Positions 19,353 through 35,286 of a DNA stretch of 35,286 nt are shown here, piece after piece. Numbering within the stretch: position 1 is the first letter of the stretch; every line of letters starts with the position of its first letter. Source of the stretch: a virus (Duplodnaviria > Heunggongvirae > Uroviricota > Caudoviricetes); the IMG/VR virus record IMGVR_UViG_2606217105_000003, positions 1-35,286 of that record; one strand, written 5' to 3'. The translations under genes were made by a program, and so were the position numbers. Below the pieces are notes generated by a model, which saw only the letters and a program-made list of their open reading frames with translations, searched no databases and had not been told where the DNA came from.

Positions 19353-19664
19353 ATGAGTGAAAAAGCAGGAACCAAAGGCGCGAAAGCCGCAAAGAACAGC
19401 GCAGCACAGGAAAACCCGGCACCGCTGGCAGACGTTATTGTGGCTGACGGTCAGGCGAATGAACCACGTCCGGCTGAAGACCCGGTTACTGTACAGGGTG
19501 ACGCCCCTGTCCAGCTGAACGTCCGGGCCGTGTCTGAAAACGGATTCTGGCGCTGTGGCCGTTTCTGGTCACATGCCGGTGAGGATGTGGCGGTGACCGC
19601 TGCGGTTGCCACCCGCCTGATGGCAGAGCCGAATCTGATTGTCCGGGAAGCGGAGAAAGGCTGA
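19353..19664 (+). CDS. Hypothetical Ala-rich virion-associated protein
   Basis: 103 aa; between the major capsid and head-tail genes. Confidence 0.45.
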   Translation: MSEKAGTKGAKAAKNSAAQENPAPLADVIVADGQANEPRPAEDPVTVQGDAPVQLNVRAVSENGFWRCGRFWSHAGEDVAVTAAVATRLMAEPNLIVREAEKG

Positions 19665-20101
19665 TGGGGTATATCACGCAGGAAGACCTGTTACGCGCGG
19701 ACGGCAATCTTGTCTGGAACATGGCGATTAACCGGGAAACCAACGAACTGGATGAAGACAAAATCCGTCAGGCCATCAGTGATGCTGAAGCGGAGATTGA
19801 TTCGTTTCTGTCCCGCCGCTACCAGCTGCCGCTGGGGGTGACGGAAATCCCGCGCCCGCTGCAACGCGTGGCGGTATCGCTGGCGTTTTACTGGTTATCA
19901 GAGCGTGACAATCAAATCACGGAGCTGATCCAGAAACGCTACGACGACGCCATTAAAACCCTGCGTGAAATGGCGAACGGCACCCGTGATCTGGGCCTGC
20001 CGACGTATGCCACCCCGGCAGAAACCGACCACGGGAAAATCATTGTGGTGGGTGCCAATGCCCGGCTGTTCACCCGTAACAACCTGAAAGGGGTGCTGTG
20101 A
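19664..20101 (+). CDS. Head-tail connector/completion protein (Mu gp36-like)
   Basis: 145 aa; position. Confidence 0.55.
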   Translation: MGYITQEDLLRADGNLVWNMAINRETNELDEDKIRQAISDAEAEIDSFLSRRYQLPLGVTEIPRPLQRVAVSLAFYWLSERDNQITELIQKRYDDAIKTLREMANGTRDLGLPTYATPAETDHGKIIVVGANARLFTRNNLKGVL

Positions 20102-20643
20102 TGGGGATTTCTGTACAGGTCAGCGGTGACCAGCGGCTGGAGGATATCCGCCGTGCCGTTGAAAAACTGGCAGATGGTTCATTGCAGGCAGAGCTGCTGG
20201 AAAGCATCGGTGCGGTGGTGGAATCACAGACCCGCCGCCGCATCATCGATGAGAAAACCAGTCCGGGTGGCGAACGCTGGCCGGACTGGTCTGACGGGTA
20301 CAAAAAGACCCGCCACGGCAACCAGAGTCTGCTGCGTGGTGAAGGCCATCTGCTGGAGAGTATCCAGTACATCGTGGAAAACCGCGTGGTGCGTATCGGT
20401 TCACCGCTGGATTATGCCCGCATCATGAATGATGGCTTTTCCGGCAGTGTGCCGGTCAGCGCCCACAAACGGCTTATCTCGCAGTGTTTCGGGCGGGCGC
20501 TGAAATATCCGGTCTGGCAGACCGTCGGCGCACATAACCGCATGATGAACATTCCGCAACGTGAATTTCTGGGGCTGTCTTCTGCCAATCAGCAGGAGCT
20601 GCAACAGGTTATCAGTCATTTCTGGAAGGAGGTTCTGCCATGA
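20098..20643 (+). CDS. Virion morphogenesis protein (Mu G-like)
   Basis: 181 aa; position after the connector gene. Confidence 0.6.
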   Translation: MMGISVQVSGDQRLEDIRRAVEKLADGSLQAELLESIGAVVESQTRRRIIDEKTSPGGERWPDWSDGYKKTRHGNQSLLRGEGHLLESIQYIVENRVVRIGSPLDYARIMNDGFSGSVPVSAHKRLISQCFGRALKYPVWQTVGAHNRMMNIPQREFLGLSSANQQELQQVISHFWKEVLP

Positions 20644-21251
20644 CAGAACAACGCCCTGAACTGCGCACACCGGGGAGCACCGTTGCGGCCGCAGAGCGCA
20701 TTGTGGCCTGGCTGAAAACAGCACTTCAGGGGAAAACCCCTGACCGGGCTGACGTGGTGGAGCGTCACATCGGCCAGTTCAACAGCCCGGAGGAAGTCAA
20801 ACGCTATCTGTCCGGTCGCACCGGCTGTATCCGTGTCGCGGCCCTGCGTGTCCGGGATATCAACCCGCGCGGCGGGCTGTCCGGTCTGGTTACCTGGGTG
20901 GCTTACATCATGGCGACGGATTCGTGGGGGTACTCCCGCGACGTGCGCTGTGAAGTGCTGGCCGGGAAGGTGATCAAACGCCTGTTGTCGTCGGATGCCA
21001 CCGGGGGCATGGGGGCTGAACGCATGGCTGCTGATGTGCGGGCAGACAACATTTACTCCGCCAGCCTCGACGGGCTGGGCGTCACCATGTGGGCGGTGAC
21101 GTGGGAGCAGGAATTTCAGCTGGATGAAGAGATTGATCTCGCCGCGCTCCCGGACTTCCTGCGCCTCGGGGCAACGCTGCGTAGCGGTGAACATACTGAG
21201 ATTAACGACGTGATCCATGTACGGGGTGACGATGGAACAGAAACTGATTAA
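20640..21251 (+). CDS. Mu gp37-like structural protein
   Basis: 203 aa; position. Confidence 0.5.
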   Translation: MTEQRPELRTPGSTVAAAERIVAWLKTALQGKTPDRADVVERHIGQFNSPEEVKRYLSGRTGCIRVAALRVRDINPRGGLSGLVTWVAYIMATDSWGYSRDVRCEVLAGKVIKRLLSSDATGGMGAERMAADVRADNIYSASLDGLGVTMWAVTWEQEFQLDEEIDLAALPDFLRLGATLRSGEHTEINDVIHVRGDDGTETD

Positions 21252-25589: not shown

Positions 25590-26863
25590 TGACAACAGGC
25601 AAAGGCAAATGGGACGGGCTGCGCGATGCCTCGTTTCGCGGCGTCCCCTTCTTTCTGGTGGATACGGAAGGCACCGGTGGCCGCAGGGCTATTCCCCGTG
25701 CTTACCCCCGGCGCGAAACCGCCTGGACGGATGATAACGGGGCCGTTCCGGGGCAACAGCAGATTAACGCAAAGCTGCCAGGTAAAAACTTCCGGGATGA
25801 TTTAAACGCCCTTTTAGACGCGCTCAATACCCCCGGCCCCGGCGAGCTTATCCACCCGTGGTTCGGGATACAGACCGTACAGGTTGGCAAGGTCACCCAT
25901 CGCCTCAGCACGGAGGAAGACGGCATTGCGTATGTCACCTTTGAAGTGTTTGAGGCAGGCGAGCGCCTGTTCCCGTCTGCGGCGGATAACACGCAGCAGG
26001 AAGTGCTGACGGGCATTGATGCGGTAAAAGCGGCCATTGACGATGGCGACTGGTTCGGCGCACTTGACGGGCTGGGTGAGATGGCCGACAGCTTTCTGGC
26101 CGATATGGAAAACCTTGTGGCTAATCTGCCCACGTTACCGGCAGCACTGAATCAGTGGATGGACAGGCTGAACCATTTTAAGGAGATGGCCGGAACCATT
26201 ATTGCCACGCCGGGACGTCTGGTCAGTGAGTTGTCATCGTTCATCGACGGCGTGGTTGATCTGGTGACGGAACCACCCGAAGCACTGGCGGTTTACACGA
26301 CATTACGCAACCAGTGGGCCGGAGAACGCGCCCGACAGGTTGCCACCGGCGCACTGCCGGAAGATATCACCGTGAAGCCAGGCAGCGTGGCAGACGGCGA
26401 GATTGGCTTTGCTATCGGGTTGTCACCGGATTATCAGCCGGTATCTGACAGCCTGCAGAAGAACATTGACGACTTCCGCCAGGTGGTGGTGCTGGAAACC
26501 CTGCTGGGACAGGCAAATGCCGTGGCCTCGATGACGTTCGATACCAGTGATGCGGCCTTATCTGCCGGCGACACGCTGGCGGCTGAACTGCATGAGCAGG
26601 CGGTGGCAGCGGTGGAAAATAACCAGCGGGCATTGTGGCGAACGCTGCGTGATTTACGGCAGGCCGTGATTACGGATGCCCGCGAGCGTGCCGCCCGTCT
26701 GCCGGAAACCCGGCAGGTGACGCTGACCACAACCACATCTGCCGCATTGCTGGCATGGCGCGAGCATGGTGACACCAGCCGACGGGATGAAATCGTGCAG
26801 CGTAACCGCCTGCGCCATCCGTCATTCATCCTGCCGACGCAACCTGTGGAGATTACCGACTGA
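25589..26863 (+). CDS. DNA circularisation protein (Mu N-like)
   Basis: 424 aa; after tape measure, before baseplate genes. Confidence 0.65.
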   Translation: MTTGKGKWDGLRDASFRGVPFFLVDTEGTGGRRAIPRAYPRRETAWTDDNGAVPGQQQINAKLPGKNFRDDLNALLDALNTPGPGELIHPWFGIQTVQVGKVTHRLSTEEDGIAYVTFEVFEAGERLFPSAADNTQQEVLTGIDAVKAAIDDGDWFGALDGLGEMADSFLADMENLVANLPTLPAALNQWMDRLNHFKEMAGTIIATPGRLVSELSSFIDGVVDLVTEPPEALAVYTTLRNQWAGERARQVATGALPEDITVKPGSVADGEIGFAIGLSPDYQPVSDSLQKNIDDFRQVVVLETLLGQANAVASMTFDTSDAALSAGDTLAAELHEQAVAAVENNQRALWRTLRDLRQAVITDARERAARLPETRQVTLTTTTSAALLAWREHGDTSRRDEIVQRNRLRHPSFILPTQPVEITD

Positions 26864-27933
26864 TGGAATCCGTGATTCTTACCGTTGACGGCAAATTGTG
26901 GGAAGGCTGGACGGAAATGTCCATCAGCCGTTCCCTGAAGGCGATTGCCGGTGAGTTTGATCTCAGTGTGACAACCCGCTGGTCGGCGGCGGCACCGCGC
27001 GTGATTCGTGAGGGGCAACCCTGCACGGTCAGGCTGGGCGCGGATACCGTGCTGACGGGGTATATCGATGATTTTATCCCCAGCTATGACGCAGATAACG
27101 TGGAGATTCGCGTCATGGGGCGCGACAAAACCGGCGACCTGGTTGACTGCTCTGTGGTGCATTCGTCCGGGAAATGGAAAGGCGTGCGGCTTGAACAGGT
27201 GGCGGCTGATGTCTGCTGCCCGTTCGGGATAACCGTCATTACGGAAACCCCGACCGGGGAGGCGTTTGCGTCTGTCGTTCTGGAACAGGGTGAAACGGGT
27301 TTTGAACTGCTCGACCGGCTGGCAAAACAGCGCGGCGTTCTGCTGACGTCTGACGGCGCAGGTAACCTGATTATCACCCGCGCCTCTTCCGTTCGCGCGG
27401 GTGTGTCACTGGTGCTGGGGAAAAATATCCTCGCCGCCCGTGGACGCTTCAGCTGGCGGGAGCGTAACAGCCAGTACATCATCAAAGGCACCACCAGTGC
27501 CGGTGGCAAACTGTGGGACAGCCAGCCTGCCTCGATGGTGGGCGGTCGCCAGTACATCACCGAAGACCCGGAAATTAACCGTTACCGCCCGCGCATTCTG
27601 GTCAATGAAGACAGCCTGACCGTGGGCGGGGCCAGCATTCGCGGGGAATGGTACAAAGCCCGGATGCTGGGGGAATCCCGCACGACGGAAATCACGGTGG
27701 CAGGCTGGCGCGAACAGGGCGACAGCGGCCCGCTGTGGCAGACCAATCGCCTTGTCGATATCGACGACAGCATTCAGAACCTGAAAACCACCTGGCTGAT
27801 ATCCGGGGTGACCTGGACGGATGGCGCACAGGGGCGGATGACGGTTCTGGCGCTGGTTCCGCCTGAATCACTGGACATGCCGGAAATGAAAGCGAAGACG
27901 AAGAAAACAAAGGCGGTGGCCACATGGGATTAA
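26863..27933 (+). CDS. Baseplate hub protein (Mu P-like)
   Basis: 356 aa; position and size. Confidence 0.65.
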   Translation: MESVILTVDGKLWEGWTEMSISRSLKAIAGEFDLSVTTRWSAAAPRVIREGQPCTVRLGADTVLTGYIDDFIPSYDADNVEIRVMGRDKTGDLVDCSVVHSSGKWKGVRLEQVAADVCCPFGITVITETPTGEAFASVVLEQGETGFELLDRLAKQRGVLLTSDGAGNLIITRASSVRAGVSLVLGKNILAARGRFSWRERNSQYIIKGTTSAGGKLWDSQPASMVGGRQYITEDPEINRYRPRILVNEDSLTVGGASIRGEWYKARMLGESRTTEITVAGWREQGDSGPLWQTNRLVDIDDSIQNLKTTWLISGVTWTDGAQGRMTVLALVPPESLDMPEMKAKTKKTKAVATWD

Positions 27934-28460
27934 ACGCTATTGCCCGCCGTCTGCGGCTGCTGGTTGACCGTGCCGTTGTCCGCATGGTGTCTGACAGTCT
28001 GGAGCGGCAGAACCTGCAAATCCAGACGCTGGCAGATGCCACTGATGACGATGTGGAACGCTTCCAGAATTACGGGTTTACTTCCGTTCCGCCGGAAGGT
28101 TCAGAAGCTATTGTGCTGGCCGTTGGCGGACGGCGTGATGGTCTGGTTGCCATTGCGGTGGAAGACAAGCGATGTCGCCCTAAAGGCCTGTCCCCCGGCG
28201 ACGTCCGGCTGTATCACCGGGACGGAAAATCACACATCACCCTGAAGGAAAACGGCGTCATTCAAATCACAGGAGAACAATTAAACGTTTCAGGGAAAAC
28301 GGTAAATCTCACCGCCGACGAATTGCTGAATATTATCGGTAAACAAATGAAATTCGTCGGTCCCTGTGAATTTACTGAAGATGTCAGAATCAACGGTAAA
28401 TCATTCATCGAACACATTCATAAGGACGGCGACAATGAGAATACATCACCGCCCGTATGA
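27924..28460 (+). CDS. Baseplate spike/assembly protein (gpV-like, Mu Q/gp45 family)
   Basis: 178 aa; position and size. Confidence 0.65.
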   Translation: MGLNAIARRLRLLVDRAVVRMVSDSLERQNLQIQTLADATDDDVERFQNYGFTSVPPEGSEAIVLAVGGRRDGLVAIAVEDKRCRPKGLSPGDVRLYHRDGKSHITLKENGVIQITGEQLNVSGKTVNLTADELLNIIGKQMKFVGPCEFTEDVRINGKSFIEHIHKDGDNENTSPPV

Positions 28461-28909
28461 CGACAGGAATCCACTGGAATAACATGCTCTCACGGGGTGA
28501 CATCACCGTCACCCATAACGGCCTCTCGCTGGATGAGGGGCTGGTCACTCAGGTTCTTATCTGCCTTTTCACCGATGCCCGTGCTGATGACGATGATGTC
28601 ATCCCTGATGGTTCCGGCGACCCGCGCGGCTGGCCGGGCGACACATACAGCGATTTTTCGTGGGGTTCCCGCCTGTGGCTGCTTGAACGCGAAAAGCTGA
28701 CGGAAGATGTCCGCCTGCGCGTGGAGGATTACGCGCGACTGTCCATGCAACCGCTGTTGCGGGCCGGTTACGCCCGTAACGCCACCGTCACGGCCAGAAT
28801 CATCGTCCCTGACTGTATTGCCTTTCAGGTGGTGTTAACCCGCCCGGACAAAACCACGCTCACAATCGAAATCACCCGCCGATGGGAGGCCACCATTAAT
28901 GCCGTATGA
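28457..28909 (+). CDS. Baseplate protein (Mu gp46 family)
   Basis: 150 aa; position. Confidence 0.6.
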   Translation: MTTGIHWNNMLSRGDITVTHNGLSLDEGLVTQVLICLFTDARADDDDVIPDGSGDPRGWPGDTYSDFSWGSRLWLLEREKLTEDVRLRVEDYARLSMQPLLRAGYARNATVTARIIVPDCIAFQVVLTRPDKTTLTIEITRRWEATINAV

Positions 28910-29987
28910 AATCCCCACGCTGGGCAAGCTGATTGCCGACGGCGAGAAAGATATTGCGTATGAACTCGGTCTGCAAAAGCTGCCGCCTGTCAGTGTTGAG
29001 CAGGCGCTGAACGTGTCGTTCAGCAGTCAGGTCCGGGATTTATACGACCATCAGAGCTGGATTAAGGACCAGATAATCCCCTCCACCGCATCTGATGATG
29101 AAACCATTATCAAAACAGCAACGTATGAAGGGGTTATCCGCAAGCAGGCCACCTTTGCCAGCGGGCCGGTGACCTTCACCAGTCAGTCCCCCATTCCGGC
29201 AGAAACCCGGATGCAGTCCGACACGAATCAGGTGTATCAGGTACTAACATCCGGCGAGGTACAGGACGGCGAGGTCACCGTCATCGTGCAGGCTGAAGAA
29301 GCCGGTGTGGCGGGCAATCTTGCTGCCGGTGCCGTGCTCACTCTGTTGTCCCCGCTACCCGGAACGGGCAGCACCGGCGCGGTGACTGAAAGTGGCATCA
29401 CCGGTGGCGCAGACATCGAATCCATCGCAGAGCTGCTGGACCGTCTGCTGTATGTGCGTCGCAATCCCCCGGTGGGTGGTGCGCTGCATGACTACGTGAT
29501 ATGGGCGCGTGAAGTGCCGGGCGTCAGCCGCGCGTGGGCGTGGGATGCATGGCACGGCCCCGGCACGGTCGGGCTGGCATGGCTTTATGATGACCGTGAA
29601 GACATTGTGCCGACCCGCGAAGACCTGAAGACAATGGAGCAGTATCTGTTCTGCCACAAACACCCGGCCACCGGCGTGATGGTGGGCAAACCGGGCGGCA
29701 TCGAGGTCTGGCCGGTACAGGTCAGACTGATTAAAGTTCATTTATCCATCCGTCTGACACCGGACAGCCAGGTGAACAGGAACGCCGTCCGGGCAAACCT
29801 GACCGCATTACAGAAAACGCTGACCCCCGGTCAGATGCTGCCGGTGTCCTCGCTGCGCACGGCCATCGGTATGACGTCCGGCATCACAGACTACTTCCTC
29901 AACATCGGGGAGGACACCACCTGTGACGTGGATGAACTTATCACCATCGGGGAGGTTACATGGCTCACAGCGTCACGGAATGGCTGA
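28899..29987 (+). CDS. Baseplate wedge protein (gpJ-like, Mu gp47 family)
   Basis: 362 aa; position and size. Confidence 0.65.
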   Translation: MPYEIPTLGKLIADGEKDIAYELGLQKLPPVSVEQALNVSFSSQVRDLYDHQSWIKDQIIPSTASDDETIIKTATYEGVIRKQATFASGPVTFTSQSPIPAETRMQSDTNQVYQVLTSGEVQDGEVTVIVQAEEAGVAGNLAAGAVLTLLSPLPGTGSTGAVTESGITGGADIESIAELLDRLLYVRRNPPVGGALHDYVIWAREVPGVSRAWAWDAWHGPGTVGLAWLYDDREDIVPTREDLKTMEQYLFCHKHPATGVMVGKPGGIEVWPVQVRLIKVHLSIRLTPDSQVNRNAVRANLTALQKTLTPGQMLPVSSLRTAIGMTSGITDYFLNIGEDTTCDVDELITIGEVTWLTASRNG

Positions 29988-30544
29988 CCGCACTGCAACA
30001 GGTCATGCCTCGGGGTAAGGCATGGCCGCGTGATAACGACGCGGATTTAAACCGTTTTTTAAGGGCGCTTGCAGAGCGTTTAACCCGCGTTGAATACGAC
30101 GCCTCGCGCCTGCATGTGGAGATGCGCCCGGAAACCACGCTCCAGCTGCTGCCGGAGTGGGAGCAATATCTGGCGCTGCCGGAATGCGGAATTGCCGCCA
30201 CCACAACGGAAGCCCGCCGCCGGGCCGTGGTGGAGAAATACCACCGCAAAGGCGGGCTGGCAACCTGGCAGATTGAAGCCGCTGCGGCGGCGCTGGGCTT
30301 CACCATTAAGGTGACGGCCGTTCTGCCGCATCACTGTCTGCGCGACTGTATGTATCCGCTGCATCCGGCCCGGTATCGCTGGCTGCTGAAAGTGGAAGTC
30401 CCGGACAAAGATGCCGGACGGTTTACCTGTATTGATGACGTCATGACGCCATTAATCAGCGAACGGACCCGCGAGCTGGAATGCCTGCTGAAGCATTACC
30501 GGCTGGCGGGCACGGAATATGAATATTATTACACCGGAGAATAA
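29960..30544 (+). CDS. Baseplate/tail protein (Mu gp48 family)
   Basis: 194 aa; position before the tail fibre gene. Confidence 0.6.
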   Translation: MAHSVTEWLTALQQVMPRGKAWPRDNDADLNRFLRALAERLTRVEYDASRLHVEMRPETTLQLLPEWEQYLALPECGIAATTTEARRRAVVEKYHRKGGLATWQIEAAAAALGFTIKVTAVLPHHCLRDCMYPLHPARYRWLLKVEVPDKDAGRFTCIDDVMTPLISERTRELECLLKHYRLAGTEYEYYYTGE

Positions 30545-30547
30545 TTT

Positions 30548-31309
30548 ATGTTTCATGTGGATAATCCGACGGGTGTGCCGGTGATGCCACCTGTCGCGGC
30601 TGAATTAAGCAAAACAACGCTTTATTTTACCGAAGGCGGGAACGGTATTCCGCCCACTTATCCGGGGCCGGACTGGTTTAATATTATTCAGTCTGAACTG
30701 CTGGAAATTCTCCGGCAGGCAAATATCAAACCGGATAAAAACACCACCGACCAGATTATGACGGCACTGAAAAAACTGTTTATTACGAACAGTGGTTCAG
30801 CCGGTGCCATTGCCGGATTAACCGGTGAGAATAATACGTTCCCGTATTTTACCGGCGAAGACACAATGGCATTAACACCGCTCAGTGCTTTTGTGCGCGG
30901 TATTCTCGGGAAAAACACAGCCGGTGAAATTATCGAAGCACTTTCATTACGTGACACGGTAAATAAAGCCAACAGTGCTGTACCGAATACCCGCAAGGTC
31001 AACGGCATGGCCCTGTCTTCGGATATCACCATCAGCAACATCAGCGGCAACGCCGGAACGGCAACCCGGCTTCAGACGGCCCGCAGGATTAATAATGTGC
31101 TGTTTGATGGCACCAGCGATATCACCATCACAGCTACAGGTGTGCAGGATATACGTCTGGGCAGCGCCATTGGTATTGGACGTGGCGGGAATGCACCATC
31201 AGGTCATTTGCTGAGCGGTGTTGATGGCGGTGAAAGTGTGGACTGGGCCAATGCACGCCCGGTGCAGGTTCTGATTAATGGCGTCTGGCGAAATGTAGCG
31301 AGTTTGTAA
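30548..31309 (+). CDS. Tail fibre protein (short, Mu S-like)
   Basis: 253 aa; C-terminal ...VLINGVWRNVASL resembles the C-terminus of P2 H-type fibres (...INGTWYNVAQV as recalled). Confidence 0.65.
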   Translation: MFHVDNPTGVPVMPPVAAELSKTTLYFTEGGNGIPPTYPGPDWFNIIQSELLEILRQANIKPDKNTTDQIMTALKKLFITNSGSAGAIAGLTGENNTFPYFTGEDTMALTPLSAFVRGILGKNTAGEIIEALSLRDTVNKANSAVPNTRKVNGMALSSDITISNISGNAGTATRLQTARRINNVLFDGTSDITITATGVQDIRLGSAIGIGRGGNAPSGHLLSGVDGGESVDWANARPVQVLINGVWRNVASL

Positions 31310-31311
31310 TC

Positions 31312-31860
31312 ATGATGCACTTAAAAAATCTTACGGCACAAAACCCTAAAACAATTGAGCAATACCAGCTGGCGCGACAGCATAAATTTTTATTGTGGCT
31401 GTTCTCCGATGATGGTCAGGAATGGCACGAAGCCCAGGAAAAATTTCAGCCAGACACTCTGAAAGTTATTTATGTTGAAACTGGCGAAGTGGTCTGGGTT
31501 GGAAAATACATCACCTCAATCTGCCCGGAAAATAAAAGCGTGATTGAGCTACCGGATATTACCGCCAATCGTCGCATTGATGCGTCGGGTTACTGGTTCT
31601 ACCGCAATGATGAATTTGTTTTTGACTACAAACTTAAAGCGGAAGATGAGCGTGATGCACTGTTAAAACAGGTCAGCATCGTGACCAGTGAATGGGAAAA
31701 AGACCTGCTGCTTGGATTAATCAGCGACGAAGAGAGGGAGAAGCTGAAATCGTACCGCATTTACGCGAAATCGCTGCGGGCAATGGATTTCAGCGCCATC
31801 ACAGATAAAGCCACATATAACGCCATCAACTGGCCGGAGCATCCTGATGCCGCAGCTTAA
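31312..31860 (+). CDS. Tail fibre assembly chaperone (Tfa, Mu U-like)
   Basis: 182 aa; immediately after the fibre gene. Confidence 0.7.
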   Translation: MMHLKNLTAQNPKTIEQYQLARQHKFLLWLFSDDGQEWHEAQEKFQPDTLKVIYVETGEVVWVGKYITSICPENKSVIELPDITANRRIDASGYWFYRNDEFVFDYKLKAEDERDALLKQVSIVTSEWEKDLLLGLISDEEREKLKSYRIYAKSLRAMDFSAITDKATYNAINWPEHPDAAA

Positions 31861-33664
31861 AGGTATAATTACATCCCCTGTGGGAGAACCGCTGAGCGGA
31901 GCAACAATAACCCTGACCTCACTACACAATCAACCCGGGATCCTGAGAGGTGTTTACAGTCACGTAACCACTCTGAGCGGTGAATATGATTTCCCCGTGC
32001 TGCCCGGAGTATATAGTGTTCGTCTGACACACAGTTCACAGCGCCTTGCAGAAATCGGGGTCATTCGGGTCTATATGGATTCGCGCGATGGTTCACTTAA
32101 TGATTTTCTGGGAGCAACTGAAATTGACTTACGACCAGAATCTTTGCGCAGATTCGAAGAACTGGCAGACAAGGTGCAGGAAAATGCAGATACGGCGGCA
32201 TCATCATCCCAACAAGCAGTAAAGATTCTGGAAGCTATTCAAAACATAGCCGGGAATATATCCGGTCTGCGTTACGAAAATTTTACTGACATACTCAGCC
32301 GTTGCACGACAGCCATGCTGAAACTGGAACAACCCGAGGTTGTTGATACATCAATATCTTTAAAAATAAAAGAAAATATCGATTTTAATTATGTCGGTGA
32401 AGTTAACGGATATTGCGATATTTCTGAACCAGAAAAGTATAAAGTCGAAATGTATGCTTATACAACCGGAGAGTATTTTAACGGCGACGCTAATTTGAAT
32501 AGTGACGGAACTTTCTATTTCAGACGTTGCTGGACGGGAGCAAAACAGTTTCGTCTTATTCGGATTGAGGATAATGCGTGGATCACAACGCTGGAGTTTC
32601 CACTGCTCATTCGTAGCTACTGGATGCCGGAGGACGCAGACCCCGAAGTGATCAGGGTGATGAAAGATCGGTGTTACACGTATGACCAGGCGCTGGCAGC
32701 ACTGGCGTTGATGGTTCAGCGACATGAGGCTGTAGAAAGATACGTTGCGGGCTTGTGTGCGCTTGTTGATGAAAACGGTGGAGTAAAGTTTTTTGTTAAC
32801 AGGCTGTCGGCCATGTCACCGCGTACCTATTACCGCCTGGGGAATGCGGCATGGGTTTATTATGCTTTGGCCTTTTATCTGGAGAAATATCCGGACGGAG
32901 CGCAGGTAAATATTGTTCGGGAAAAGTTGTTATCCGGCATTGTCTGGCTTGATTCTTTCCTTGTGACAACAGAAGGTGACCTGAGAGAAGGTTTATATAA
33001 AGGCGGCCTTGGTCGTTATGTAAATGGCGAATTTGACGCCAGTTTTGTTGCTGAATGGTGCGCACTGGAGCACAACGTAGATATCTGGTTTTTGTTTGAA
33101 CTGATGGGGCGGCTGGGATTTGATGGTTTCACCAAACGTGCAGAAAAACTGGCGCAAAGCATCATCAGGGGGATGTGGGTGGAAGAAGAGGGACGATTCC
33201 GTCAGGGGGTGCATCCAACACACTATGACAACGCGGCAGCACTGGATCAATCTTCCTGGGGAGGATTGTTTATAGCCAATATAGATACCGGGAAAGCAGC
33301 AAGATGTCGTAAGTACATGGGGCGTTTTTTATTTGGCACGCGGGAAACAACAGGTTATACACCGTATCACCCTGACTACGGTTACAGTGGTCACAGTCGC
33401 GGCGTGTGGGTGGAAGGAACTGCGGGCGTGGCACTGTTTGAGCGCAAACTGGGTAACGAGCTGAATGCAGTGAATCTCATTGCTGCAATGGCCCCGCTTT
33501 TTAATAAGTTTGGTTACAGAGATTCATGTGATGATCCAACCTATGATGTGCTACCTCCGTGGCCATCAACAACAAACACAGCCTGGATAATCCTGACGCT
33601 AAAACCAGAAAATTTCTGGTTAGTGGATTCACCTGAAATGGATGTTGGTATGATTCGGTACTGA
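31847..33664 (+). CDS. Chimeric tail-fibre-like protein: lambda Stf-type N-terminal anchor fused to a globular enzyme-like C-terminal domain
   Basis: 605 aa; start overlaps the Tfa stop. N-terminal ~130 aa matches the lambda side-tail-fibre N-terminus as recalled (motifs YSV, LNDFL, RPExLRRxE). C-terminal ~400 aa is Trp/Tyr-rich without fibre repeats. An AT-rich linker lies at about 32300-32520. Confidence 0.55.
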   Translation: MPQLKGIITSPVGEPLSGATITLTSLHNQPGILRGVYSHVTTLSGEYDFPVLPGVYSVRLTHSSQRLAEIGVIRVYMDSRDGSLNDFLGATEIDLRPESLRRFEELADKVQENADTAASSSQQAVKILEAIQNIAGNISGLRYENFTDILSRCTTAMLKLEQPEVVDTSISLKIKENIDFNYVGEVNGYCDISEPEKYKVEMYAYTTGEYFNGDANLNSDGTFYFRRCWTGAKQFRLIRIEDNAWITTLEFPLLIRSYWMPEDADPEVIRVMKDRCYTYDQALAALALMVQRHEAVERYVAGLCALVDENGGVKFFVNRLSAMSPRTYYRLGNAAWVYYALAFYLEKYPDGAQVNIVREKLLSGIVWLDSFLVTTEGDLREGLYKGGLGRYVNGEFDASFVAEWCALEHNVDIWFLFELMGRLGFDGFTKRAEKLAQSIIRGMWVEEEGRFRQGVHPTHYDNAAALDQSSWGGLFIANIDTGKAARCRKYMGRFLFGTRETTGYTPYHPDYGYSGHSRGVWVEGTAGVALFERKLGNELNAVNLIAAMAPLFNKFGYRDSCDDPTYDVLPPWPSTTNTAWIILTLKPENFWLVDSPEMDVGMIRY

Positions 33665-33828
33665 AGCAATTCAGCATGAAAAGTGGATGTGGAGCGTACT
33701 TATAAATAATCATTTTGTATAGTTTATGACGATCGATAGCATCATATCGATCGTCGGTTTGCATCAGTTGTGATTAAATACCCCCAGCCCTCCGGGCGGT
33801 CATGTCTGGTTATTACACAGGGGGAATC
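33665..33828. promoter_or_regulatory. mom operon control region with GATC-containing inverted repeat
   Basis: 11-bp perfect inverted repeat GACGATCGATA-N6-TATCGATCGTC (about 33728-33755) carrying two GATC sites, upstream of com; in Mu, Pmom is controlled by Dam methylation/OxyR and activated by C. Confidence 0.5.
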
Positions 33829-34014
33829 ATGGACTCTGTTCGCTGTAAAAACTGCAATAAATTACTGTTTAAAGGAGGTTTTAAGCATATAGAAATTAAA
33901 TGCCCTCGCTGTAAACGTTACATTGTCATATCGAATGCCAAAGAGCATCCCACGGAGCTGTATTGTGGGAAAAGAGAAGAAATCACGCGTTCTGACAAAA
34001 CCCTGCGTTATTGA
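33829..34014 (+). CDS. com: Com, zinc-finger translational activator of mom
   Basis: 61 aa from internal ATG ([14 protein letters not shown]...CPRCKR...) with C4 zinc finger; track ORF 33802..34014 extends upstream. Confidence 0.8.
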
Positions 34015-34669
34015 GTATGAAGGCCGGATTGTCGGCTATGGTTCAAAGGAGCTACGTGTTGAAACCATATCCTGCTGGCTGGCCCGCACAATCATTCAGA
34101 CAAAACACTATTCCCGCCGTTTTGTGAATAACTCCTACCTGCATCTTGGCGTATTCAGCGGACGTGATCTGGTTGGCGTTCTTCAGTGGGGATATGCCCT
34201 TAACCCCAACTCAGGGCGTCGGGTCGTGCCTGGAACGGATAACCGGGGCTATATGGAACTGAACCGCATGTGGCTACACGACGACATGCCCCGCAACTCT
34301 GAGTCACGGGCCATCAGCTACGCGCTGAAAACCATCAGGTTATTGTATCCGTCAGTGGAGTGGGTTCAGTCCTTTGCAGACGAACGCTGCGGACGCGCAG
34401 GCGTTGTATATCAGGCGTCGAATTTTGATTTTATTGGTAGCCATGAAAGCACGTTCTACGAGCTGGACGGCGAGTGGTATCACGAAATAGCGATGAACGC
34501 GATTAAGCGCGGAGGGCAACGAGGCGAGTATTTGCGGGCTAATAAGGAGCGGGCCGTGGTACACAAATTTAATCAGTATCGCTACATCAGGTTCCTGAAC
34601 AAGCGTGCAAAAAAGCGCCTAAACACCAAGCTATTCAGGATTCAGCCATACCCCAAAAACACATCTTGA
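33935..34669 (+). CDS. mom: Mom, DNA modification (adenine carbamoylmethylation) anti-restriction protein
   Basis: Frame overlaps com; sequence ...[25 protein letters not shown]... matches Mu Mom as recalled. True start uncertain: ATG at 33935 or GTG at about 33965 with GGAG upstream; track ORF begins at TTG 33923. Confidence 0.8.
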
Positions 34670-34768
34670 TTTGTATCAAATAATTTTCCGTAATGCCGTT
34701 TTGGGTGGTATCAAAAAAAATCCAAAACGGTATCAAATAATTTCGCGCGCTTTACGAAAGTGGTGACA
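34665..34768. repeat. Right end (attR-like) with three GGTATCAAA copies
   Basis: TTGTATCAAA (about 34671-34680), GGTATCAAA (about 34707-34715 and 34729-34737), inverse orientation to the left-end repeats; terminus ...GTGACA. Confidence 0.6.
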
Positions 34769-35032
34769 GTGAAGCTGGGCGATGGTTATGAACAGCGTCG
34801 TGCGGCGGGACTGAATAACCAGTTGTCGACTTACAGCGTGACGATACGTGTTCGTAAATGTGAACACCCATCTTTAAAAGCCTTTCTGGAACGGCACGGT
34901 GGCGTCCGCGCATTTCAGTGGACGCCACCTTATGACTGGAAACCGATTAGGGTGGTTTGTCGTAAATGGTCGGCAAGCGTGGGGGCGCTGTGGGTAGCCA
35001 TAACGGCAGATTTTGAACAGGTCGTGGCATAG
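34769..35032 (+). pseudogene. Lambdoid minor tail protein M, C-terminal part resuming after the insertion
   Basis: VKLGDGYEQRRAAGLNNQLSTYSV...ADFEQVVA aligns with lambda M from VRFGDGYSQRAPAGLNANLKTYSV... to its end; the two fragments together equal lambda M length (109 aa). Confidence 0.7.
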
Positions 35033-35040
35033 GAGGCTCT

Positions 35041-35286
35041 GATGCAGGATATTCCACAGGAAACACATCATGAGACGACACGCCTCACTCAGTCAGCCCA
35101 GGTGGTGCTCTGGGAAATCGATCTGACAGAGGTCGGTGGTGAACGTTATTTTTTCTGTAATGAGCAGAACGAAAAAGGTGAGCCGGTTACCTGGCAGGGG
35201 CGGCAGTATCAGGCATACCCCATTCAGGGGACAGGATTTGAACTGAACGGCAAGGGCAGTGCTGCCCGTCCGACACTGACGGTTTC
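35041..35286 (+). CDS. Lambdoid minor tail protein L, N-terminal part (3'-truncated by window edge)
   Basis: MQDIPQETHHETTRLTQSAQVVLWEIDLTEVGGERYFFCNEQNEKGEPVTWQGRQYQAYPIQGTGFELNGKG matches lambda L as recalled. Confidence 0.75.

Follow-up and report, generated by a model that had tools for sequence, protein, structure and literature searches.

The window analysed in this study is the whole stretch of 35,286 nucleotides (nt) of IMG/VR record IMGVR_UViG_2606217105_000003 (positions 1 to 35,286), which contains a Mu-like transposable prophage of Escherichia coli from about 1331 to 34754. The gene under study encodes an accessory tail protein of 605 amino acids (aa) and lies between the tail fibre assembly chaperone gene and com-mom. 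On the Mu map, this is where Sv/U, the inverted S'v/U' and gin are found. The com-mom region (33802..34669) is the right end of the slot that in Mu holds the G segment and gin. The position of the open reading frame (ORF) had been given exactly by a first-pass annotation, which was made from the sequence alone, and the ORF list agreed with it. The features of the locus are as follows.

30548..31309, plus strand: primary short tail fibre gene, 253 aa, its N-terminus of the baseplate-directed Mu S type (32% identical to Mu S over aa 1–200 by tblastn; PHROG 1833)
31312..31860, plus strand: tail fibre assembly chaperone gene of the U/Tfa type, single copy (PF02413, E 2e-23; 38–41% identical to Mu U and U')
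31836..31839, plus strand: ribosome-binding site GGAG, read from the sequence, 7 nt 5' of the ATG of the 605-aa ORF
31847..33664, plus strand: accessory tail-protein gene, 605 aa, with Stf-type anchor, helical stalk, beta-sandwich and predicted (alpha/alpha)6 barrel (ORF with ATG start)
31847..32113, plus strand: collar/anchor domain, aa 1–89, six-stranded beta-sandwich and short helix (LNDF) (PF08400, PF13620, solved-chain matches and AlphaFold2 (AF2))
32114..32290, plus strand: linker (aa 90–96) and long helix, presumed trimeric coiled-coil stalk, aa 90–148 in all (AF2 helix 97–135, with a low predicted local distance difference test score (pLDDT) as a monomer)
32297..32836, plus strand: block of 540 nt, codons 151–330, 93–100% nt identical to stf of lambdoid phage phiSTEC1575-Stx2k (codon-aligned identity profile; megablast)
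32357..32599, plus strand: predicted beta-sandwich, aa 171–251, in an AT-rich stretch (AF2 model of aa 128–605, strands at fragment residues 44–124, pLDDT mostly 83–95)
32642..33661, plus strand: predicted (alpha/alpha)6 barrel of the six-hairpin glycosidase fold, aa 266–605 (AF2 model, Foldseek)
33802–34014, plus strand: com (71% protein identity to Mu Com; com-mom matched PF10122/PF25680)
33923–34669, plus strand: mom (94.6% protein identity to Mu Mom; same Pfam matches)

A gp48/YmfQ-type wedge gene lies upstream of the 253-aa fibre gene. The 605-aa ORF starts inside the end of the chaperone gene and overlaps its stop by 14 nt, which suggests translational coupling within the late tail operon. 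No ORF was present between the 605-aa stop (33664) and com, and there was no downstream chaperone gene, unlike in fibrous variants. None of the minus-strand ORFs inside the gene (54–121 aa) was gene-like. The 605-aa protein matched PHROGs 13714, 7032 and 4128, labelled 'tail fiber protein', with E down to 9e-271. A protein identical to the product is present in public databases; its RefSeq name is 'prophage tail fiber N-terminal domain-containing protein', and one homologue is named 'glucosidase family protein'.

The N-terminal part (about 130 aa) had been described at first pass as Stf-like, and family matches, homology to solved chains and the AF2 layout all agreed with this. PF08400 matched aa 5–126 with E 7.9e-24 and 84.6 bits, against a Pfam gathering score of 26.6, and PF13620 also matched. 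As a single sequence, the anchor matched two chains of the PDB, Ur-lambda Stf (9e7m, E 2.5e-6) and XM1 gp40 (7kjk, E 2.5e-4). A profile built from anchors of this kind matched 9e7m with E 3e-28 and 7kjk with E 1.2e-9, the latter in an alignment that covers profile positions 1–177 and extends into the helix, and among solved structures the profile search gave no significant homologue beyond Ur-lambda StfN and XM1 gp40. The AF2 model of aa 1–160 placed strands at 3–7, 19–25, 37–41, 46–50, 54–62 and 65–75 (pLDDT 74–89), a short helix at 84–87, a low-confidence linker at 90–96 and a long helix at 97–135. Lambda StfN is laid out as a six-stranded sheet with a helix, a linker of about 10 residues and a trimeric bundle (PMC12617516). 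The modelled topology was consistent with this published layout, as compared by description and by the sequence match to 9e7m. By analogy with lambda Stf and XM1 gp40 (PMC12617516, PMC10457771), the 605-aa protein would trimerise through the long helix. The region of aa 90–148 carries a conserved DL(R/K)P..(R/K)(R/K)FEE motif and contains the point at which the lineage-specific anchor passes into the shared cassette: resemblance to the proteins of other Mu-like prophages stopped near aa 126, and resemblance to lambdoid stf started near codon 151.

The C-terminal domain was modelled as aa 128–605 with 27 homologues, giving a pLDDT of 87.6 and a predicted template modelling score of 0.89. The model consisted of a beta-sandwich followed by an (alpha/alpha)6 barrel and had no fibre tip, in line with the earlier description of a globular, enzyme-like, non-fibre C-terminus. 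The predicted domain has the barrel fold that defines six-hairpin glycoside hydrolases (GH). The top rank in Foldseek was held by GH78 rhamnosidases (E 1e-8), and in BFVD the fold matches were giant-virus glucosidases and a single uncharacterised protein of a virus (F9VHN7, E 5e-20). Pfam at E ≤ 10 gave no family for aa 128–605 or 252–605, and NCBIfam gave nothing useful. Sequence and profile searches of the PDB with the C-domain gave no match, so its classification follows the predicted fold. An exhaustive HMMER search (E ≤ 1e-3) found relatives forming 484 clusters at 50% identity, and distant relatives had sub-threshold GH63, GH88 and GH94 matches only.

Conservation was investigated in 130 relatives of about 30% identity. 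Y279-D280, R330-x-G332, E408-H409, D412, W444, D461, L466-D467, W471 and W521-x-E523-G524 were kept in 87–100% of them, and N410 in 85%. Conservation of acidic and aromatic residues was 92–98%, and the acidic ones (D280, E408, D412, D461, D467 and E523) were located at helix starts in the AF2 model. The main conserved motifs each stood at the N-terminal start of a barrel helix, as expected of a pocket at one barrel mouth. The ratio of nonsynonymous to synonymous substitution rates (dN/dS) against the lambdoid homologue was 0.09 over aa 161–605, within a range of 0.06–0.19, indicating purifying selection. The predicted fold, the conserved residues and the constraint together support, and do not prove, an active glycosidase.

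The slot contained no switch of the Mu type. The inverted repeats of the Mu G segment are about 34 bp long. A tblastn search with Mu Gin against the whole window gave a best E of 2.1, that is, no Gin homologue. The N-terminus of Mu S, S', U and U' each matched a single plus-strand locus by tblastn, and no second fibre/chaperone pair was found. In 29900–34800, no gix-like inverted repeats were found: the longest arms were 22 nt with 73–77% complementarity, the sole perfect pair was 15 nt, and none of the longer pairs was more than 81% complementary. A cryptic gin or a reduced G segment was rejected on the basis of these searches. The first-pass annotation had stated that gin and flanking inverted repeats were missing and that fibre and chaperone were present in single copy, and each statement was borne out. 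phiP27 shares the arrangement, with fibre, chaperone and PF08400 protein in this order, so it is not unique.

The cassette of the 605-aa gene was compared with that of lambdoid phages. A full-length homologue (78% identity) occupies the stf position of phiSTEC1575-Stx2k, following J and lom. Outside the near-identical block at 32297–32836, nt identity to this stf was 33–57% over codons 1–150 and 72–88% over codons 331–605, and the 5' edge of the block was a sharp identity breakpoint near 32290–32297. These profiles are evidence for a recent exchange of the block with a lambdoid stf. GC content was 0.355–0.40 across 32200–32600, compared with about 0.50 on either side. This low GC had been read at first pass as an AT-rich linker supporting recent domain fusion. 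The low GC was real, and the breakpoint at 32290–32297 does support domain shuffling; since the AT-rich stretch lies inside the near-identical block and codes for the folded beta-sandwich, it is not a linker.

The C-domain was also found on other proteins, fused to anchors of PF08400, PF12571 (tail-collar fibre), PF18668 (TSP1/gp66 N-terminal), PF03406 and PF25613, or to none. Besides that of the window, at least five other tail anchors carry the enzyme cassette, and all three PF08400 anchor subtypes were found joined to the barrel cassette. The arrangement characteristic of modular depolymerases, a virion anchor with an enzymatic domain shared by unrelated anchors, was thus present. The option of an unrelated cargo enzyme, left standing at first pass, became unlikely because the C-domain sits on several other tail anchors. 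Among complete E. coli genomes, the cassette was present in 41. Close homologues occur in Yersinia, Salmonella and Citrobacter with 71–86% identity, those of Yersinia and Salmonella at 85–86%, which might mean, as a speculation, that the target is not strictly O-type specific. One metagenomic relative, P0160 (1050 aa), has the barrel at aa 40–484 upstream of T4 gp5-type C-terminal beta-helix repeats; this fusion would place the enzyme on a cell-puncturing spike.

The anchor behaved differently from the cassette. Anchor identity was 78–95% within E. coli Mu-like prophages of the same gene order, 61–97% within phiP27-type tails, 86–88% within lambda-type tails and 28–45% between these groups. 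By sequence, the Stf-type anchor is divided into three subtypes that follow the tail type (Mu-like, phiP27-like and lambda-like). The first-pass idea of a siphovirus part in a myovirus did not hold, since the anchor is of the Mu-like-prophage subtype and the spike of XM1 is also homologous. Recent capture of the anchor from a siphovirus was ruled out by the conservation of the subtype among E. coli Mu-like prophages. Further prophages of this kind in E. coli showed the same succession of genes (YmfQ, fibre, Tfa, PF08400 protein, (DUF4376), com, mom), with PF08400 proteins of 468, 605, 749 or 1037 aa depending on the C-terminus; a DUF4376 gene followed the fibrous PF08400 variants in sister prophages.

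The search with the anchor alone at the protein level gave mostly truncated entries, and the anchor counts come from a DNA search of complete E. coli genomes. DNA of the window anchor subtype was found in 48 of the 5426 complete genomes and adjoined or overlapped the chaperone gene in all matches listed. Strain KFu019 has an almost identical gene (99.7% aa), carried by a prophage that is integrated elsewhere in the chromosome. In E. coli RIVM_C019217 and many related human isolates, the PF08400 gene is a 113-codon pseudogene directly before com-mom (L003 5343–5681). The sister prophage of this type is widespread and has an enlarged YmfQ-type gene and an extra 352-aa gene. Judged from these sequences, the accessory protein is dispensable or replaced in the RIVM_C019217-type lineage.

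An anchor tied to the tail type, joined to a cassette that moves between tail types, is the sequence signature of a virion-attached receptor-binding protein. The 605-aa gene therefore probably gives its transposable Mu-like myophage a second receptor-binding protein that is not switchable, that is, a virion-tethered accessory glycosidase. The trimer would be held by the helix of aa 97–148, and the three collar domains of each trimer would join a ring round a site on the virion where hexameric rings are stacked on one another. The barrel would bind and cleave a host surface polysaccharide (O-antigen, capsule, colanic acid or enterobacterial common antigen (ECA)). Binding and cleavage would keep the particle on the cell and open a path for the short baseplate fibre to its receptor. 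Host range would be set by recombinational swapping of the C-terminal cassette, not by Gin inversion.

Several observations weigh against this interpretation. At least 80% of the locus (anchor and cassette) was found in only 3 of the 5426 complete genomes, with 95–98% identity, so the combination is rare. Some members of the lineage keep just a truncated remnant of the gene, so the protein appears dispensable. Phage Mu has no collar fibres (PMC11915804), and the two solved homologues of the anchor are at different sites, the tube/tip junction in lambda and the neck in XM1. The C-domain is 9–13% identical to (alpha/alpha)6 glycosidases and matched no curated Pfam or CAZy-type family.

The docking place was considered separately. 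Four trimers in lambda supply twelve such domains, which make up a collar at the gpV/gpM junction (PMC12617516). XM1 has six trimers, whose eighteen domains attach to the connector and tail-terminator rings of the neck (PMC10457771). The window prophage encodes sheath and tube and no gpV/gpM, and its adaptor protein (19664–20101) matched Mu gp36 (9khx, E 6e-10). The most accessible ring junction in a sheathed tail would be the neck, as for XM1 gp40, with a distal site as the alternative. Neck docking is favoured, tentatively, over the distal site, since a lambda-type junction would be covered in a sheathed tail and the sole solved myophage homologue is at the neck. The two neck-region proteins after the adaptor, of which the first is a putative neck/terminator protein (20098–20643), had no significant solved relative in the PDB. 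The second, a 203-aa ORF (20640–21251) between the neck genes and the sheath gene, matched PHROG 490, 'portal protein', a family of just 190 residues; its T4 fibritin match (E 0.74) was not significant.

With distal docking, the enzyme would stand next to the cell surface like a classical tailspike. The homologous lambda collar is near the tail tip (PMC12617516), the gene comes directly after the baseplate (26863–30544), fibre and chaperone genes, and an enzyme placed about 100 nm away from the cell would seem to be of less use. The lambda site, however, is the junction of the tube and a Dit-type ring, which in a contractile tail would lie under the sheath and wedges, and XM1 gp40, the sole solved myophage homologue, attaches at the neck, to the connector and tail-terminator rings (PMC10457771). 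Distal docking is accordingly regarded as somewhat unlikely. A more far-reaching form of the neck model is rather unlikely as a whole. It would have a neck ring of enzyme-tipped spikes, absent in Mu, built from the tail-type-specific Stf collar domain, and a barrel founding a new glycoside hydrolase family that acts on a glycan shared across Enterobacteriaceae (ECA, colanic acid or lipopolysaccharide core). The shared target is hinted at by the Yersinia and Salmonella homologues at 85–86% identity.

Three explanations differ from that of a virion-tethered glycosidase. The barrel could be a carbohydrate binder only, making the virion-tethered protein a lectin-like adhesin without catalysis. Proteins that do not hydrolyse their ligand can have the (alpha/alpha)6 fold as well, among them epimerases, isomerases, cyclases and complement thioester domains, which leaves room for such an adhesin; it is nevertheless considered distinctly unlikely.

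The gene could also be a by-product of recombination or a decaying passenger, with a cassette taken from co-resident lambdoid prophages and a product that is poorly expressed or not in the particle. The 540-nt block of 93–100% identity to a lambdoid stf fits this, as does the location of the window prophage itself inside a lambdoid prophage; related Mu-like prophages in many strains have the 113-codon pseudogene, and many database entries are partial. Against decay, the frame is intact, the ribosome-binding site is good and the ORF overlaps the chaperone gene, and dN/dS of 0.06–0.19 indicates strong purifying selection. The gene of 99.7% aa identity at another chromosomal site in KFu019 also speaks against a passenger, and the anchor is of the lineage's own subtype, not the lambdoid one. 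This explanation is quite improbable.

A non-structural cargo (moron) enzyme, acting outside the particle on host polysaccharide in the lysogen or at lysis, would suit a globular, predicted enzyme-like C-domain and a prophage-end position beside com-mom, a frequent site of accessory genes, but it is very improbable, given an N-terminal domain of the virion-anchor type, both solved homologues of which are bound to the particle, the constant presence of the cassette on tail-protein anchors, the PHROGs label of tail fibre, the finding of no promoter-like site of the gene's own on the plus strand, and an N-terminus in which no signal peptide was noticed on reading by eye, no prediction tool being used.

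The surroundings of the gene were also mosaic. The early region of the prophage was 86–92% identical in nt to Mu, D108 and Mu-like Yersinia phages, whereas the baseplate and fibre proteins were 31–41% identical to Mu; the genome is therefore a mosaic. For the head and tail genes, the best phage match was an unannotated Klebsiella phage (74%). Window 31140–31827, which runs from the 3' end of the short-fibre gene through the greater part of the chaperone gene, was 93.9% nt identical to phiP27 L54/L55, so the primary fibre tip and its chaperone are an exchanged cassette too.

The flanks, 1–1330 and 34755–35286, were 92.7% (left) and 99.8% (right) identical to phage cdtI. The Mu-like prophage is inserted in a lambdoid prophage, at a point within the orf14 minor-tail gene of cdtI, the lambda M position. 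The junction repeat at both flanks was CGAA (4 nt) only; the target-site duplication of Mu is 5 bp. The right ends were examined by sequence comparison (window 34700–34754; L004 at about 7790; L002 at about 8370; L006 at about 11770). The right end of the window prophage reads ...GCGCGCTTTA and is common to the FDAARGOS_943 prophage. The Mu-type right end ...GCGCCGCTTCA was found in Mu, KFu019 and ETEC1734, of which the latter two prophages are otherwise near-identical to that of the window. Mu ends with TG...CA at left and right, and the ends of the window prophage appear to read TA...TA instead.

Upstream of com, a perfect 10-nt palindrome, GACGATCGAT-N8-ATCGATCGTC, with two GATC sites, is located at 33728–33755. 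The mom regulatory region of Mu is under Dam/OxyR control, and the palindrome may be its counterpart. The DNA around com could be aligned to Mu only from 33839 on, and the palindrome lies before that point.

Host-range variation through DNA inversion has its textbook example in Mu. The window lineage would have given up the switch in favour of a fixed short fibre and a second, cassette-swappable receptor-binding protein. Stf collar subtypes matched to tail type could serve as a portable adaptor with which engineered receptor-binding proteins are mounted on tails of both kinds, contractile and non-contractile. The C-domain represents a large family without a Pfam model, with a predicted glycosidase fold that is rare among phage depolymerases. 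If active, it would count as a new family of enzymes and might provide a reagent directed at a surface glycan of E. coli. The results also raise the question of where an Stf-type collar docks on a sheathed tail. Current ideas stand, modular receptor-binding proteins and collar spikes being established concepts already.

Among known systems, the Stf of Ur-lambda (9e7m/9mgh) is the homologue of the N-terminal domain, with strands, helix, flexible linker and helical bundle laid out alike. As an accessory protein, it serves adsorption without being essential, and its gene closes the tail operon (PMC12617516). The window anchor is about 32% identical to it, and the window protein is without the long fibrous shaft, the gp37-like tip and the downstream Tfa. 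In place of the fibrous shaft and the Tfa/DUF4376 protein that go with the PF08400 family, the C-terminus is a predicted globular (alpha/alpha)6 barrel. The gpV/gpM docking site of lambda does not exist in the same form in the window virion, which has a sheath and no gpV/gpM.

XM1 gp40 (7kjk) is similar in having a homologous Ig-like N-terminal domain (residues 1–100), a coiled coil and a C-terminal domain like a polysaccharide enzyme, in a myophage with a simple baseplate (PMC10457771). It differs in that its C-terminus is a Det7-type tailspike (PMC10457771) and not an alpha-barrel, and its stalk is about 100 residues long, compared with about 50 in the window protein. Neck attachment is shown for gp40 and only inferred for the window protein.

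phiP27, an Stx2e phage sequenced in 2002, has Mu-type baseplate genes, fibre L54, Tfa L55 and the PF08400 protein L56 (E 4e-63), followed by L57, a DUF4376 protein. The 3' end of its fibre gene and its tfa have 94% nt identity to the window. L56 differs in its anchor subtype (36% identity) and in its C-terminus, where Pfam gives nothing further after PF08400. Unlike the window prophage, phiP27 is not transposable and has no com-mom.

For the barrel, the (alpha/alpha)6 glycosidases compared were the GH15-like dextran dextrinase (9ju0), the endo-alpha-mannanase MmpH (7qsj), GH76, GH63 and GH78. The window C-domain differs from them in its sequence (9–13% identity) and has no Pfam GH match even at E 10. 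The alpha/alpha-toroid is a recognised fold class in computational surveys of phage and prophage depolymerases and is rare, accounting for about 1% of fold-assigned depolymerases in INPHARED phages and less than 1% in Klebsiella prophages; these surveys report no characterised member of the sequence family of the window C-domain (PMC11326577, PMC12491483).

The Mu G segment occupies the same genomic slot, from the constant fibre region to com-mom, and has the same role in setting host range. The window differs from it in that both the invertase and the inverted repeats are missing and alternative genes in opposite orientation are absent. The G segment is a switch within one genome, whereas the window lineage appears to vary by cassette exchange between phages.

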